From positions 189,382 through 253,381 of the forward strand of contig CAWDUP010000004.1 in the NCBI GenBank assembly GCA_963805505.1: a stretch of DNA of 64,000 nucleotides. The letters are read 5' to 3'. The notes under the pieces are model-generated. The model worked only from the letters and a program-made list of their open reading frames with translations, was not told the DNA's origin and searched no databases. Below are positions 6,970-64,000 of the stretch, in pieces; within the stretch, counting starts at the first letter, position 1, and each line of letters starts with the position of its first letter. Made by a program: the position numbers and the translations under genes. Origin of the DNA: an uncultured Actinomycetota bacterium. GTDB taxonomy: Bacteria; Actinomycetota; Actinomycetes; DATJPE01.

Positions 6970-7532
6970 CCCTGCGGCACCGGGGGACGAAGCGAAGCGA
7001 CCAGGTCGGCCAGCTCTGCGTCGGCGGCGCTCCCCTGGATGATCAGGGTGGAGTCGGTGAGCTCGCGGACGTACGCGTGCCGACGGCCGTCATCGGCCTG
7101 CCACAGCTCCCACCCGGCGAAGGCACCGGTGCCCGCACCACTTGCGCTGCCGCCTTCGAACAACGTACGCACCGCCCGGGCCGGGGACGCGTCAGTCTGT
7201 TGGAGGGCGGCGTACTGGCCCTCCGGCGTGACATACCCGATGTGGAACACGGTCGACTCGGGGACGCTGCTGACCTCAGGCGGCTCGTAGCGGGCGCTGG
7301 TCGGCTGCCAGGCGGCGCTGAGTCCTGTCGGAACCCTCGCCACGAACGGGGCAGCCGCCCGGGCGCTCACGACCGCCGTGGTCGGGTCCACGACGTGAAC
7401 CGCTTCGGGCTTTGCCCGGTAGGTGACTCCGACAAGAAACGCAACGAACAGACCGACGACGGCCAGCGACCACACCATGTCCCGAACGGTCTGACGACCG
7501 CGCTTCGGGGGACGCTCGACGTCGACAGTCAC
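6966..7532 (-). CDS. DUF4245 domain-containing membrane-anchored protein
   Basis: The C-terminal 188 aa of ORF 6966..7847 (TM helix plus a DUF4245-like region). A GTG start at 7532 or ATG at 7478 was chosen because the upstream part overlaps modC. Confidence 0.6.
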
Positions 7533-9438: not shown

Positions 9439-10224
9439 TCATGGAAGCTGGAAGCCGTACTTCTCGAGCACCGCTGCCCCGTCGGGAGACCGCACCAAGG
9501 CGATGAAGGCGGACGCGGCGCCGCCAGTGCCGGCCGAACCGGTCAGCTCGACGATCGGATAGTCGGTGGTGATCTGCTCCGGCTTGGGGAGGACCACCTC
9601 ATCCGTCGTGTCAGCGGCTGCGCGGGCATCCGTCACGTAGACCACGCCCACATCCGCCTCGTCCGCTGCGACCTTGGCCACCACCGACTTGACGTCCTGC
9701 TCGAGGGAGTCCGGCGCCGCCACCAGTCCAGCCACCTCGAAGGCATGCACGGCAGCCGCTCCACAGGGAACTTCCGGGGCGCACATGACGACGGTGCGCG
9801 CCGGATCGGCGAGATCACGTAAGCCGGTCACCCCGGCCGGGTTGCCTGGAGGCACCACCAGCGTGAGGGAGTTTCGCGCAAAGACAACCGGCTGACCGAC
9901 GGTTACCCCACCGTCCACGGCCTCCTGCATGTTGGTAGGGCTGGCCGTTGCGAGCACAGCTGCTGGGGCACCGTCGAGTGCCTGCCGCACGAGGCTGCTG
10001 CTGCCGCCGAACGAGAAGTCGACCACCGTCCCAGGATGTTCCGCCCGATAGACGTCGCCGAGCTCGCCGAAGGCCTCGGTCAGCGACGCCGCGGCCAGAA
10101 CCGTCAGGTGCGGTGGCTCAGCACGCCCCGATCCTGACGCTGCGCACGCCGACAGGGTTGCCGGCACCACCGCGATGGCTGCGAGGGCGCGCAGGAGCCG
10201 GACCGTCTTCTTGCGGTGGGTCAC
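9439..10224 (-). CDS. modA: molybdate-binding periplasmic lipoprotein
   Basis: Lipoprotein signal (LSAC) followed by a ModA fold (TVLAAASLTEAFGELG, FSFGGSS). Confidence 0.85.
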   Translation of the reverse strand: MTHRKKTVRLLRALAAIAVVPATLSACAASGSGRAEPPHLTVLAAASLTEAFGELGDVYRAEHPGTVVDFSFGGSSSLVRQALDGAPAAVLATASPTNMQEAVDGGVTVGQPVVFARNSLTLVVPPGNPAGVTGLRDLADPARTVVMCAPEVPCGAAAVHAFEVAGLVAAPDSLEQDVKSVVAKVAADEADVGVVYVTDARAAADTTDEVVLPKPEQITTDYPIVELTGSAGTGGAASAFIALVRSPDGAAVLEKYGFQLP

Positions 10225-13387: not shown

Positions 13388-14413
13388 TCACGTTGCGTCC
13401 GACCAAGTGAGGGCTATTGGCCACGCTTCCTCGGACGTAAGCCTCCGGGCCAGCCAGCGGTGACCAAGGCGCGTTCGACCTGGTCGAGGAAGGGTTCCGG
13501 ATCGGTGCGCAGCGCAAGGACAGGGACCCGGAGCACGGTACGGCCATCGAGGGTTACCTCGTTCTGGCGGAAGGCGTCCGGCAGGTGGGCAACGACATCC
13601 AGGTGCTGAACCCCGTCGATCTCCACAACTAGGCGGAAGTCGTCCCAGCAGACATCGAGGTAGACGCGCCCACTTGGGAGGCGAACCACGCGCTGGCGGG
13701 TTGGGGGTGGGAGTCCTCGGCGGCGACACATGCCGAGCGAAGTCAAGCTCCCCCAGGGACTGGGCTCCTTCGCGGACATCGGCGACGACGGCGCGCAACA
13801 GTCTCCGCCTCGGATGCCGCACCACGCGATCCAGCGCAGTCGAGATGGCCTCAGCAGTGGTGATCCGCTGCTGCACCGGTGCCACGATCAGCAATGCGGC
13901 CTCCCGGTCGGATCGCGCCCAAAGAGCCGCGAACAAAGCTGCAGGGGCAGGGCGCAACCGCGGCAGCGTGCTGACCGCGATGTCTTCTGGGCGAAGCCGC
14001 CGGGTCTCGTAGACCCGGACGCCGCGTGCTCCGCGCGGCCGACATGACTTCGGCGCGGCCACCTGGATCCGGTCGGAGCCGATGCCACGCAGGCCGTACG
14101 ACTCGAGCGCCGAAACACCTCCGAGCAACGCACCCGGGCCGACCTCGAGGACCGCCCGCCACCATTCGGTTTCAAGGCTTGGCCCCTGCGGGAGGATCAA
14201 GACAGTCTCAGGGCCGAGGCGCTTCCACCGGTCGGCGCGCACCTGTGCCGACACCTGCCAACGGGTCATGCCAGCGGCGTACAGCTGGCGCCGGTGAACG
14301 ACTCCGCCCTGATCCGCCGCCAACCGCTCGACCTCGGCCCGCCGGCGGATGCGGGCGGCAGCCGTCGCAGCCGTTGGCAGGGGACGCGCGGGGGCAAGCA
14401 CAGGCCTAGGCAT
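13388..14413 (-). pseudogene. DUF559 (endonuclease-like) / AbiEi-antitoxin-like family gene disrupted by a +1 frameshift
   Basis: The AbiEi-like N-terminal domain runs in frame 13388..14413 up to ...LGELDFAR. The DUF559 motif (MCRRRGLP...RVYLDVCWDDFRLVVEIDGVQH) continues in the overlapping ORF 13414..13779, offset by one extra nucleotide near 13732. Confidence 0.7.
13390..13443. repeat. copy A of a ~50-bp palindromic intergenic repeat (ttgcgtccgacc..ataggccac..tcggacgcaa family)
   Basis: Seen directly. It aligns with the copies at 14497-14555 (inverted) and 28048-28100, and lies between the fumA-type and DUF559 stops. Confidence 0.5.
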
Positions 14414-18177: not shown

Positions 18178-18945
18178 CTACGGGGTGAAGGTCACCCGCT
18201 GGCCGGGCGGCGTGTGCAGGACCTGAACGGGGATCTCGAGCTCCTTCACCGCACTGCTGAAGGCTCGAGGGGGATCGTAGAGGCGCGACGGCAGGGCGTG
18301 CCGCAATCCGTAGGGAAACAGCGTGCCCCAGTGCACAGGGACAGCGAACCGGGCGCCGAGAATCCCAGCCGCCTGGGCTGCTCGGTGCGGGTTCAGATGC
18401 CCGGGACCGAGGTTTGGGCCCCATCCCCAGACCGGTAGCAGTGCAACATCCACCTCGTCGGCGAGATCGGCCATCGCCGGAAAGATGTCGGTGTCGCCCG
18501 CGAAGTAGACGCAGGTCTCCCCTGCTTCGAGCACGAAACCGAGTGCATCCGCCCGCGGGCCCCACGGCTCCCGCTTGCCGTCATGGACAGCGTTGACCGC
18601 CCGCACAGTCAACTCGCCATCGACGAAGCACTCGCCAACGGTGAGCTCGTGGACCTCATTGAAACCCTTGCCACGTAACCATGTTCCGGCACCTGCGGGC
18701 ACGAGGATGGGCACATCGGGGCCGACCAGGCGCAAGGAGGGTACGTCGCAATGGTCGTGGTGGAGGTGGCTCAGCAGGACGAGGTCGATGTCAGCGAACA
18801 GCGACGGTGGCACAGGCATGGAGAGCCGAGTCAGGAACGTGACGTGCTGTCGCAGCACTGGATCCGTGAGAACCCGTCGCCCACCGATGCTCAGCAGCAC
18901 GGTGCTGTGCCCCAGGAATGTCAACGCGGGCAACGTCTGGACCAC
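18178..18945 (-). CDS. MBL-fold metallo-hydrolase
   Basis: HLHHDHCD metal-binding motif; 255 aa. Confidence 0.8.
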   Translation of the reverse strand: MVQTLPALTFLGHSTVLLSIGGRRVLTDPVLRQHVTFLTRLSMPVPPSLFADIDLVLLSHLHHDHCDVPSLRLVGPDVPILVPAGAGTWLRGKGFNEVHELTVGECFVDGELTVRAVNAVHDGKREPWGPRADALGFVLEAGETCVYFAGDTDIFPAMADLADEVDVALLPVWGWGPNLGPGHLNPHRAAQAAGILGARFAVPVHWGTLFPYGLRHALPSRLYDPPRAFSSAVKELEIPVQVLHTPPGQRVTFTP

Positions 18946-35644: not shown

Positions 35645-37072
35645 GTGCGGATGTCTACCCCGGTCCAGTCCAAACCCGAGTCGGGTCCCACCTACAGATC
35701 GACTCGCCACGTGCCTCGACCGGCTGGGCCGAACAGCGCCGTGTTCATCGCCGCCATGCTGTCGGGCCGCGTGTCTCCGCACGACATGTTCACCAAGGTG
35801 GCGCGCGAGCACGGACGAATCGCCCACATCCGGCTCCCTAAGGAGCACCTCTACGTCTTGAGCCACCCCGACCTGGTCCGCTCTGTCTTCGTCACGCATG
35901 GGCGATCGACGATGAAGGGCCGCGGCGTCCAGCAGATGCGTCCCCTCCTAGGCGACGGCCTCCTGACCTCCGAAGGGGAGCTGCACCGCAGGCAGCGGCG
36001 ACTCGTGCAGCCCGCATTCCATCGGAAGCGGATCGAGGGGTACGCCGAGACGATGGTCCAGGTGGCGCTCGAGCGCAGTCGTGCCTGGCGGGACGGTGAG
36101 CCTGTCGACCTGTCCACCGAGATGTCTTCCCTCGCCCTGGACATCGTGGGAAAGACCTTGTTCGGTACCGACCTCAGCACGACAGCGTCGGAAGTGGCGG
36201 ACGCGCTGTCGGCCCTGCTTCACAACTTTCAACGCCGGATGACCGGAGGGGCAGACAGCTTGCTCGACCGCCTGCCGACCAGGGCCAACGCGCGTCGACA
36301 GCACGCCCTCGACACCCTCGACTCGATCATGGCCGAGCTGATTGCCGCTCACCGTGCTCACCCTGATGCTCCCACCGACACCGTGCTCTCGATGCTGTTG
36401 AGCGCGCGAGACGACGAGGGCGAAGGCCGAGGCATGTCCGACCGGCAGGTCCGCGACGAGGTCATGACCTTGGTGCTGGCTGGTCACGAGACGACCGCCA
36501 ATGCCCTGACCTGGGCCTGGTTCCTCTTGGGGCGGCACGCAGATGTTGCAGAGCGGCTGCATTCCGAGGTCGAGGCCTTACCAGCCGTACTCGATCTTGG
36601 TTGCGTCCAGGACCTTCCGTGGACCCGCGCTGTCGTCGCCGAGACTCTCCGGCTGTATCCACCTGCTTGGACCATCGGCCGTCGGACAACCGCCGACCTC
36701 GAGATCGACGGGTGGCTGGTGCCTGCTGGGTCGCTCACCCTGGCCAGCCAGTGGGTGCTCCATCGCGACCCACGATGGTGGGGGGACGGAGACGCGTTTC
36801 GCCCCGGCCGCTGGCTGGACGCGAGCGGCGCCTTCGACGAGACCGCGCCAGGGCAGCCCAAGGGAGCTTGGTTCCCGTTCGGCCTAGGCGCTCGGGTCTG
36901 CATCGGCGAGTCCTTCGCGTGGACCGAGGCCGTGCTGGTTCTCGCGACGCTGGCCCGCTCGTGGGCGCCGGTCATCATGGCTGACCGGGCGCCAGCCGTA
37001 CGTCCCGCGGTGACGCTTCGGCCACGTGACGGCATGCCCGCCATCCTGCGACGGCGCACACGCGACGGCTGA
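35645..37072 (+). CDS. cytochrome P450
   Basis: Heme loop FPFGLGARVCIGESFA and ETLRLYPP (ExxR region). Confidence 0.9.
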   Translation: MRMSTPVQSKPESGPTYRSTRHVPRPAGPNSAVFIAAMLSGRVSPHDMFTKVAREHGRIAHIRLPKEHLYVLSHPDLVRSVFVTHGRSTMKGRGVQQMRPLLGDGLLTSEGELHRRQRRLVQPAFHRKRIEGYAETMVQVALERSRAWRDGEPVDLSTEMSSLALDIVGKTLFGTDLSTTASEVADALSALLHNFQRRMTGGADSLLDRLPTRANARRQHALDTLDSIMAELIAAHRAHPDAPTDTVLSMLLSARDDEGEGRGMSDRQVRDEVMTLVLAGHETTANALTWAWFLLGRHADVAERLHSEVEALPAVLDLGCVQDLPWTRAVVAETLRLYPPAWTIGRRTTADLEIDGWLVPAGSLTLASQWVLHRDPRWWGDGDAFRPGRWLDASGAFDETAPGQPKGAWFPFGLGARVCIGESFAWTEAVLVLATLARSWAPVIMADRAPAVRPAVTLRPRDGMPAILRRRTRDG

Positions 37073-62398: not shown

Positions 62399-63226
62399 CT
62401 AGTTGCGGTTGAGGATCGCCAGGAGGCGGAGCAGCTCGAGGTAGAGCCAGATCAGCGTGACCATGAGGCCGAACGAGGCGCGCCATGACTCCCGCTCGGG
62501 CAGCCCGAACGCGACGCCCTTCTCGATCGCGTCGAAGTCGAGCACCAGGCTGAACGCGGCCAGGCCGACACCGGCGACGCACAACAGGATGCCCAGACCA
62601 CCGACTCCGTAGAAGCCCCAGCCCTCGCCGACCCCGAAGAACGCCGAGATCAGGCTGACCACCGCGATGCCCAGGTAGGACACCATCGCGACCATCATCA
62701 TCTTCTGGAAGCGCGGGGTCGCCCGCAGCTTCCCGGAGGAGTACAGGGCGAGCATGACTCCGAACGCCACCAGCGTGCCGAGCACCGCCTGTCCGACGAG
62801 GTTCACCTGGTTCGGGTTGAGATCCGGGCTGTTCTGATACCAGCTGCTGATGCCGCCGAGGAAGACTCCCTGGACAGCGGCGTAGGCCATGATCAGCACA
62901 GGATTGACGGTGCGCTTGAAGGCGTTGAACAACCCGAGGCCGAGGCCCACGAGCATGGCGCCCCAGACTAGGAACGGATAGTCGAAGGCGAGATTCCAGC
63001 CGACGATGGCCATCGGGACGAGCAGCACGAACAAGATCGCGGTCTTGACCACGACATCTTGGACCGACATCCGCTGACCAGTGGCTGTCGCCTCCGGAGG
63101 GGCGTACTGCTGCTGCATCGTGGCAGCCTCGGCGCCTTGCGCCTGGAAGGTCGCGTAGCGGGCTGGGTCGTTGAACTCCCGGTTGAGCACGGGGTTGCGA
63201 CTCGAGTATCGATCGGTAGTGGCCAT
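62399..63226 (-). CDS. Bax inhibitor-1/YccA family membrane protein
   Basis: 7-TM BI-1 pattern; 275 aa. Confidence 0.85.
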   Translation of the reverse strand: MATTDRYSSRNPVLNREFNDPARYATFQAQGAEAATMQQQYAPPEATATGQRMSVQDVVVKTAILFVLLVPMAIVGWNLAFDYPFLVWGAMLVGLGLGLFNAFKRTVNPVLIMAYAAVQGVFLGGISSWYQNSPDLNPNQVNLVGQAVLGTLVAFGVMLALYSSGKLRATPRFQKMMMVAMVSYLGIAVVSLISAFFGVGEGWGFYGVGGLGILLCVAGVGLAAFSLVLDFDAIEKGVAFGLPERESWRASFGLMVTLIWLYLELLRLLAILNRN

Positions 63227-63297
63227 AGCCAAGGATAACCGCTCGCGCCGCTGCTGCGCCGCTCGACGTCATGGACCGGAAGGTCCGGCTCGACTCG

Positions 63298-63370
63298 TGC
63301 CCCCGGTGGGGATCGAACCCACACTGGATCCCTTTTAAGGGGACTGCCTCTGCCGTTGGGCTACGGGGGC
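63298..63370 (-). tRNA. tRNA gene, 73 nt, no encoded CCA; the hand fold gives anticodon UAA with a 5-nt variable loop, so the isotype is uncertain
   Basis: Acceptor GCCCCCG/CGGGGGC, U8, A14, GG in the D loop, T-loop TTCGATC, anticodon stem GUCCC/GGGAU and loop CUUAAAA. Confidence 0.65.
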
Positions 63371-64000
63371 GCCCCCAGGGTAGGCCGCCGCGTCCTCAGT
63401 GACAGCCACCTGTTGATCTCCGGGCACCGGCGCCGCACCGTGGGACAGGTCGATCGCCACGGCCTTGGCCACCGACTCTTCGTCAGCCACCGCCGTTCCG
63501 TGATGGGCGGCCCAACCGATCAAAGCCAGCGCCAGGGCGCCGACGGCGGCCGAGAGAACACCGCCGAGCGCCAGGCTCGTACGCGGCCCGAACGCCTCCC
63601 CGAGCCAGCCGACGATCGGGGCGCCGATGGGCGTCCCCCCGAGGAAGACGGTCAGGTAGATGGCCATGACCCTCCCCCGGAACGCGGGGTCCACCCCGAG
63701 CTGCACCGTGGCGTTGGCGGCGGTCATGACCGTCAGGGCGGCCAACCCGCAGGGCACCAGAGCGACGGCGAATGTCGTGTACGTCGGCATGGCCGAGGCC
63801 GCCAGCTCGACCAGACCGAAGGTCAAGGCTGAGCCGGCTACCAAGCGAACTCGCGGGTTTCGGCGACGAGTGGCCACCAGGGCGCCGAGCAGCGAGCCGA
63901 TGCCGAGCATCGTGGCGAGCAGGCCGAAGCCCTGGGCGTCCTTGCCGAAGACCTGCGTGGCCATCAGGGCAATAGTGATCGAGAAGTTCAGCCCGAAGGT
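63335..64000 (-). CDS. MFS transporter, C-terminal half (the gene continues past the window end)
   Basis: TM-rich MFS C-terminal region. The ORF remains open to position 64000. Its last 36 nt overlap the tRNA gene. Confidence 0.6.
   Translation of the reverse strand, partial: TFGLNFSITIALMATQVFGKDAQGFGLLATMLGIGSLLGALVATRRRNPRVRLVAGSALTFGLVELAASAMPTYTTFAVALVPCGLAALTVMTAANATVQLGVDPAFRGRVMAIYLTVFLGGTPIGAPIVGWLGEAFGPRTSLALGGVLSAAVGALALALIGWAAHHGTAVADEESVAKAVAIDLSHGAAPVPGDQQVAVTEDAAAYPGGAPVAQRQRQSP

Follow-up and report, generated by a model that had tools for sequence, protein, structure and literature searches.

A class I tRNA-Leu(UAA) gene with a five-nucleotide variable loop in an uncultured member of the Actinomycetota, and the distribution of its relatives in bacteria and phages

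We describe here a 73-nt tRNA gene with a UAA anticodon and a short variable loop, located on the minus strand (63298..63370) of a 64,000-nucleotide stretch of DNA from an uncultured Actinomycetota bacterium, which is referred to below as the window. This is a bona fide tRNA gene, identified by ARAGORN and Rfam, by an identical copy at a related locus and by covariation. With high confidence, we consider it to be a chromosomal, vertically inherited housekeeping gene for a class I tRNALeu(UAA) which is charged with leucine and decodes UUA and probably UUG. Its overlap with a neighbouring MFS transporter gene is, on the same reading, incidental.

ARAGORN calls only one tRNA in the whole window, a tRNA-Leu at 63297-63370 (minus strand) with anticodon taa at position 34, and the Rfam model RF00005 aligns over its full length (1-71/71) with 63370..63298, scoring 56 bits (gathering score 29) with E = 2.3e-09. 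These results agree with a preliminary description of the DNA, which had drawn a 73-nt minus-strand class I cloverleaf with U8, A14, a TTCGATC T-loop and A73. Its reading of a UAA anticodon and its assignment to leucine are likewise borne out by ARAGORN, by Rfam and by related loci, which retain UAA. It had also allowed that the isotype might be misassigned, that the anticodon might lie in another register or that the gene might be a tRNA-Lys with a misread base. This doubt can be set aside, as ARAGORN and the orthologous loci all give Leu UAA. Two other readings, a tRNA-Lys or tRNA-Phe in a misread register and an anticodon loop of 8 nt, were rejected because ARAGORN and Rfam agree on the register and because relatives retain the loop CUUAA[A/G]A. 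An ochre (UAA stop) suppressor was also considered and rejected: it would need the anticodon UUA, while the anticodon here is 5'-UAA-3', which pairs with the leucine codon UUA.

The tRNA reads GCCCCCG UA GCCC AACGGCAG AGGC A GUCCC CUUAAAA GGGAU CCAGU GUGGG UUCGAUC CCCAC CGGGGGC A; the CCA is not encoded. All features given here are on the minus strand. The 5' strand of the acceptor stem, GCCCCCG (tRNA positions 1-7; 63364..63370), pairs with 63299-63305, a pairing seen in the sequence and in the covariation. The complementary 3' strand, CGGGGGC (66-72), lies with the discriminator base A73 (63298) at 63298..63305, as the sequence and the Rfam match agree. The D-arm, GCCC-AACGGCAG-AGGC (10-25; 63346..63361), carries a signature of the leucine type, recognised in the cmscan alignment and from its likeness to that of E. 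coli leuZ. It includes three Watson-Crick pairs, A14, A15 and G18G19, together with a C13.A22 mismatch which is marked by cmscan and kept throughout the family. The anticodon stem-loop GUCCC-CUUAAAA-GGGAU (27-43; 63328..63344), with an A36-A37-A38 motif, is defined by the sequence, the Rfam match and compensatory changes. The anticodon itself (34-36; 63335..63337), placed by ARAGORN and coinciding with the end of an open reading frame, is also the TAA stop of the MFS gene. It is followed by the variable loop CCAGU (44-48; 63323..63327), as seen in the sequence, the Rfam match and the alignment with leuZ. Its 5 nt, which the preliminary description had counted correctly, replace a type II hairpin of about 15 nt. 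The T-arm, GUGGG-UUCGAUC-CCCAC (49-65; 63306..63322), is supported by the sequence, Rfam and covariation. U8, A9, A14, G18G19, U54, U55, C56, A58 and A73 are all present. The single-sequence minimum free energy fold (z = -2.8) does not reproduce the cloverleaf exactly, and support for the fold was therefore taken from covariation instead.

Across 62 distinct members of the family, 99.4% of the cells of the class I cloverleaf are paired and 16 of its 20 pairs show double changes, that is changes on both sides. None of 500 shuffles reached this level of covariation, and registers slid along the alignment gave only 35-52% pairing. Compensatory double changes occur in six of the seven acceptor-stem pairs and compensatory changes in all five pairs of the anticodon stem, and the five pairs of the T-arm all covary. 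The pattern used in the search fixed three D-stem pairs, whose invariance therefore provides no information on covariation. Among the individual positions, T8, A14, G18, T54, C56 and A58 are invariant in the 62 members and T55 nearly so, T8 and A14 being fixed by the search pattern. A73 is also invariant, as is U34, the latter again fixed by the pattern. The first base pair, G1-C72 in the window, is G1.U72 in 16 of the 62 members. Three of the loci, which are Nanopelagicales-like (L004:2836-2912, L005:333-408 and L172), combine G1.U72 with an enlarged D-loop (AACCGGUCAGA) and G37 (loop CUUAAGA).

The gene is also conserved in its genomic context. Directly downstream of it lies a gene of the Bax-inhibitor-1/YccA family (62399..63226, minus strand; homologues carry PF01027/PF12811), which served as the anchor for synteny: the DNA around its homologues provided six related loci, with BI-1 proteins 58-78% identical to that of the window, all on contigs of uncultured Actinomycetes-type MAGs. 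A search for an exact match to the BI-1 protein of the window gave no hit, and the comparison was therefore based on these more distant homologues. The comparison with orthologous loci called for in the preliminary description shows a short tRNA-Leu(taa) at all six, in a common neighbourhood with the order ppx ... NDH2, MarR, MFS, tRNA, BI-1, DUF4287, GDSL lipase. At one of these (L003) the tRNA is identical to that of the window over 73/73 nt while the flanks are divergent and the BI-1 protein is only 68% identical. Among the related loci the anticodon stems vary by compensatory pairs (GUCCC/GGGAU, GCCGC/GCGGC and GGCGG/CCGCC), the loop remains CUUAA[A/G]A and the variable loop measures 5-6 nt. 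Since the L003 copy is identical in spite of its divergent flanks, and since the changes in the anticodon stems are compensatory, the gene is under purifying selection.

The body of the tRNA is of the leucine type. In an alignment with E. coli leuZ, the D-arm, the anticodon loop, the T-arm and A73 all correspond and the sole gap is of 10 nt, in the variable arm. Because this is the only gap, the class I body looks like that of a canonical bacterial type II tRNALeu(UAA) lacking its variable-arm hairpin. It shares with leuZ a D-arm with a 3-bp stem, the 13.22 mismatch and the arrangement A14 A15 .. G18G19 .. AGA, and with tRNAs of the leuZ and Streptomyces bldA type the anticodon, a YUUAAAA loop, the T-arm and A73. 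It differs from canonical type II tRNALeu in having 5 nt rather than about 15 in the variable arm and no hairpin there. In all the loci fetched, the D-arm signature UAGCCCA[AG]..[AG]AGGC occurs in 214 of 1030 predicted tRNAs. The anticodons of these carriers are exclusively those of leucine (taa 190, caa 15, tag 4, gag 3 and cag 2), and the tag, gag and cag carriers had not been selected by the search patterns. The signature is absent from all of the approximately 720 non-Leu tRNAs in the same loci, including all 17 tRNA-Phe. Bacterial LeuRS does not read the anticodon, according to Asahara et al. 1993 as cited in PMC13433404; a body tied to leucine without being tied to one particular anticodon is thus what is expected of LeuRS substrates.

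Gene order in other phyla points in the same direction. A class I tRNA-Leu(UAA) gene comes after one for tRNA-Cys(GCA) in loci from Rokubacteria, Methylomirabilia, Binatia, Acidobacteriota, a Deltaproteobacteria MAG and Planctomycetota. Three loci (L144, L196 and L239) show the full order Gly(GCC)-Cys(GCA)-Leu(UAA), and five (L143, L152, L206, L216 and L234) show Cys-Leu. The E. coli glyW-cysT-leuZ genes have the identical Gly-Cys-Leu order and leuZ is of type II, so that the class I gene takes the position of its canonical type II counterpart.

A precedent exists for the charging of a tRNALeu without the long arm. The preliminary description had started from the premise, a textbook view, that bacterial tRNA-Leu is type II. 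The type I tRNALeu(CAA) found in S. coelicolor runs counter to this premise: it has a 5-nt variable loop, ACAGC, and is leucylated by the single LeuRS of that organism (Fan et al., NAR 2019, PMC6614811). For charging of the S. coelicolor tRNA, U8:A14 matters and five variable-loop nucleotides, including nt 48, are the minimum (PMC6614811). The window tRNA displays the features expected of a type I tRNALeu, with a leucine anticodon, a 5-nt loop, U8:A14 and the elbow nucleotides G18, G19, U54, U55, C56 and A58. The two come from the same phylum, belong to class I and share a loop of the form xCAGy (ACAGC in S. coelicolor, CCAGU here; PMC6614811), as well as U8:A14, G18G19, U54:A58 and A73, and both decode the UUR leucine box. 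They differ in anticodon, CAA in the S. coelicolor tRNA and UAA in that of the window, and the UAA isoacceptor of Streptomyces (bldA) is of type II. Homology between the two is deduced from these features and from the occurrence in phage contigs of CAA and UAA variants with one body.

From these likenesses we infer that the window tRNA is leucylated by the LeuRS of its cell. This enzyme is probably adapted to type I substrates, since the E. coli enzyme failed to charge the type I tRNALeu of Streptomyces (PMC6614811). It is not encoded in the window, which contains no ORF of 800 aa or more. The transcript would be processed, receive its CCA and then be charged with leucine by LeuRS, which would recognise the body (U8:A14, the Leu-type D-arm and the elbow) and neither the anticodon nor a long variable arm. 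The charged tRNA would decode the very rare UUA codon and probably, by wobble from U34, UUG as well. Codon use in the window, described below, is in keeping with this reading. A modification of the i6A37 type is suggested by the A36A37A38 motif.

Three other explanations of the gene deserve attention, and each draws on real features of the locus. The first concerns its amino acid identity. A35, A36 and A73 are PheRS identity elements in tRNAPhe, and mistranslating tRNAs such as tRNAProX and allo-tRNA combine the body of one amino acid with the anticodon of another. A class I shape is unexpected for leucine under the textbook view, and the window tRNA has A35, A36 and A73 in common with tRNAPhe. 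It might thus be imagined as a recoding or mistranslating tRNA with a non-Leu identity, phenylalanine for example, which would turn UUA and UUG at least partly into another amino acid. Codon usage bears on this in two ways. In 57 frames chosen by GC3 and comprising 18,017 codons of the window, TTA occurs only four times, a condition in which codon capture is conceivable; ATA is similarly rare (five codons). TTG, however, is common (227 codons) and misreading of UUR would be costly. The four TTA codons lie in GC3-selected frames at 9439-10224 (-), 13414-13779 (-), 18178-18945 (-) and 35645-37072 (+), which encode respectively a ModA-like binding protein, a small unknown ORF, an MBL-fold hydrolase-like ORF and a cytochrome P450. 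Two of these four sites, those of the ModA-like protein and the P450, align with Val in solved (PDB) homologues; judged from these alignments, the two sites would be aliphatic positions, compatible with Leu though not Leu-specific. As the window offers only four TTA codons, the comparison has little power. The main PheRS determinant, G34 of the GAA anticodon, is absent from the window tRNA, which has U34. The same body occurs with five leucine anticodons and with no non-Leu anticodon among the approximately 720 other tRNAs, unlike what would be expected with PheRS, which reads the anticodon. A mistranslating tRNA of the tRNAProX or allo-tRNA kind was rejected on the same ground, the body type being found exclusively with Leu anticodons (214/214). 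Moreover, the D-arm is of the Leu type found in E. coli leuZ, the class I gene occupies the place of the canonical tRNALeu(UAA) in other phyla and leucylation in vitro has been shown for the homologous type I tRNALeu(CAA) (PMC6614811). Together these observations make a recoding tRNA exceedingly improbable.

The gene could also be an auxiliary tRNA derived from a phage or an island, or the decaying, tRNA-like remnant of an attachment site, rather than a housekeeping gene. tRNAs of the same kind are indeed abundant in phage contigs and in tRNA arrays, and relatives of the gene have been touched by mobile DNA: two related loci have an insertion beside the tRNA and Pseudonocardia endophytica carries a half-copy nearby. 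But genuine host tRNA genes are typical targets of integration. In the window itself the tRNA is complete, with all of its stems intact and covarying; the MFS and BI-1 genes flank it directly, with nothing inserted, and the 64-kb sequence shows no break in composition at the gene. The neighbourhood, out to ppx, recurs in relatives whose BI-1 proteins are as little as 58-65% identical, and this recurrence at distant loci indicates vertical inheritance. We therefore regard a mobile or decaying origin as very unlikely. The third explanation, to which we attach equally little weight as to a recoding tRNA, is that the overlap with the MFS gene is functional, coupling translation of the transporter to processing of the tRNA. 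Cleavage by RNase P could for instance generate a non-stop mRNA, with the anticodon as the stop. The arrangement might invite such a view, as the ORF is in frame with nucleotide 1 of the tRNA and stops exactly on the anticodon both in the window and at a related locus (L002), and as the two genes are on the same strand with no sigma-70-type promoter match between them (the consensus was of the E. coli type and uninformative for Actinomycetota). The comparisons with relatives detailed below argue against it: the overlap is lost in two of four loci, the MFS ORFs of L001 and L003 ending before the tRNA.

The MFS ORF, of which the window contains only the 3' part, is given in the list of open reading frames as 63335..63964 (minus strand) and runs off the end of the window (to 64000). 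Its stop codon TAA (63337..63335) corresponds to tRNA positions 34-36, so the overlap of 36 nt and the coincidence of stop and anticodon, both pointed out in the preliminary description, are real. The overlap (63335-63370) comprises the last 11 codons and the stop. Read in frame, nucleotides 1-33 of the tRNA (GCC CCC GUA GCC CAA CGG CAG AGG CAG UCC CCU) give APVAQRQRQSP. In an alignment of the MFS proteins the conserved part ends near ...VGALALAL, and the tails beyond this last conserved membrane segment vary in both length and sequence. The tail APVAQRQRQSP is common to the window and L002 only. It is conserved there only because the underlying tRNA DNA is conserved. The L003 ORF, as noted, stops short of a tRNA identical to that of the window. 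The coincidence of stop and anticodon is an incidental by-product: a C-terminal tail free to vary reads on to the first in-frame stop, stops are scarce in DNA of 67% G+C, and the TAA of the anticodon is the first available. A scan for promoters and terminators near the tRNA gene was uninformative, the promoter consensus being of the E. coli type and the host a member of the Actinomycetota.

In L001 and L002 approximately 2.8 kb are inserted between the tRNA and the BI-1 gene, and this segment is absent from the window and from L003. It contains fragments of sigma-70 regions 2/4, a PD40/Tricorn-like ORF and unknown ORFs; no integrase figures in the precomputed Pfam lists for it. The insert is flanked by direct repeats of the tRNA 3' end, 22 nt long and perfect in L001 (2110-2131 and 4939-4960) and 19 nt at 95% identity in L002 (2110-2128 and 4906-4924), which have the signature of site-specific integration into the tRNA gene. 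In Pseudonocardia endophytica DSM 44969 (L228:3900-3951 and 7358-7409) a 52-nt copy of the tRNA 3' half, 94% identical, is found 3458 bp from the full gene and probably marks the second attachment site of an integrated element. Together, the insertion and this half-copy identify the tRNA gene as a target of integrating elements.

Short tRNALeu(UAA) genes are not confined to the relatives of the window. One genome per species was scanned with a pattern specifying the D-arm and the CUUAARA loop. Since both the D-arm and the anticodon were thereby fixed, the hits count carriers only and are no measure of genomes without the short form. At least 119 loci were found, and ARAGORN predicts a class I tRNA-Leu(taa) with the same body in 117 of the 119 matches listed. 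Judging by record titles, about 93 of the 119 matches listed are from Actinomycetota. Those listed include Mycobacteriales (Nocardia, Gordonia and Corynebacterium), Micrococcales (Arthrobacter, Pseudarthrobacter, Microbacterium, Leifsonia, Plantibacter and Demequina), Pseudonocardiales (Amycolatopsis, Pseudonocardia and Kibdelosporangium) and Streptosporangiales (Nonomuraea and Streptosporangium), as well as Geodermatophilales, Actinomycetales, Nanopelagicales, Acidimicrobiia and Rubrobacteraceae; Arcanobacterium is another of the cultured carriers listed. The matches listed from outside the phylum are from Planctomycetota, Verrucomicrobiota, Acidobacteriota, Rokubacteria, Methylomirabilia, Binatia, Armatimonadota and others. 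There is no Streptomyces among the 119 matches listed, consistent with the retention by Streptomyces of a type II UAA isoacceptor (bldA).

Phages carry the same form. With a looser pattern, which did not impose GUAGCCCAA..GGCAGAGGCA, viral contigs yielded at least 104 short tRNA-Leu with anticodon taa and at least 29 with caa, all having this body. Homologues are labelled tRNA-Leu in the GenBank records of phages of Gordonia, Mycobacterium, Streptomyces, Lactobacillus, Erwinia and cyanobacteria. We take the short form to be the usual tRNALeu(UAA) in much of the Actinomycetota, in several other phyla and in many of the tRNA sets of phages. What the preliminary description had taken for an atypical tRNA or tRNA-like gene is for this reason an ordinary one: the same form is found at the six related loci, in 117 of the 119 matches listed and in abundant phage copies.

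A Nitrososphaerales archaeon MAG (L170), a Rickettsiales MAG (L136) and a Prochlorococcaceae MAG (L183) include a class I tRNA-Leu(UAA) with an encoded CCA, which may represent phage or mis-binned DNA rather than a native gene. At five further loci (L166, L168, L184, L201 and L233), in Verrucomicrobiales, Pyrinomonadaceae and Saprospiraceae MAGs, 11-21 tRNA genes including a class I Leu(UAA) are packed within 8 kb. These arrays, which sometimes also hold class I Leu(CAA, UAG, AAG), are reminiscent of those known from mycobacteria and phages.

Bacterial class I tRNALeu have already been published, and the UAA gene of the window is a further one. Besides the CAA member from Streptomyces, the only one to have been studied biochemically, a tRNALeu(TAG) with a short variable loop is known from mycobacterial tRNA gene clusters (Behra et al., BMC Evol Biol 2019, PMC6582537). 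Like the window tRNA, this is a class I tRNALeu of the Actinomycetota, and similar class I Leu(tag/gag/cag/caa) were seen here in tRNA arrays. The mycobacterial genes, however, are additional copies within many-tRNA arrays that look mobile, whereas the window gene is single, syntenic and chromosomal. Animal mitochondrial tRNALeu(UUR) is also of class I, has a UAA anticodon and reads UUA and UUG. It is nevertheless organellar, A/U-rich and structurally relaxed and has no sequence kinship with the window tRNA beyond general tRNA features; the long arm was lost independently in the two. S. coelicolor LeuRS does not charge it (PMC6614811).

Our literature searches found no paper describing a bacterial class I tRNALeu with a UAA anticodon, and a 2023 review holds that tRNALeu is long-armed everywhere save in animal mitochondria (PMC9976931). 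The rule that, animal mitochondria aside, every tRNALeu belongs to class II is broadly wrong in bacteria, given the at least 117 species, the loci following tRNA-Cys(GCA) in several phyla and the more than 100 phage copies reported here. A wider generalisation, that class I is the standard native UUR-decoding tRNALeu across most Actinomycetota and several phyla and has also spread in phage tRNA sets, seems to us evenly balanced between being right and being wrong. If true, it would contradict the printed view. In the organism, UUA and perhaps UUG would then be read by the class I tRNA alone, which would need a LeuRS adapted to armless substrates, and the type II bldA of Streptomyces would be an exception within the phylum. 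The under-appreciated aspect is this wide native distribution, which is not a property of the window locus, and it bears on the co-evolution of LeuRS and tRNA, on the isotype models of tRNA-prediction tools and on the choice of orthogonal tRNA/LeuRS pairs. For the window, the appropriate annotation is tRNA-Leu(UAA), an everyday annotation in databases, with the MFS gene marked as overlapping.

A last observation concerns two Planctomycetota MAGs (L128:3550-3912 and L241:2193-2534), in which tRNA genes for Leu(CAG), Leu(UAA), Leu(GAG) and Tyr form a tight cluster. All three Leu tRNAs are class I and near-identical outside the anticodon stem-loop, which looks like the outcome of recent duplication accompanied by a change of anticodon. 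The clusters hint that in some genomes tRNALeu is mostly of class I.
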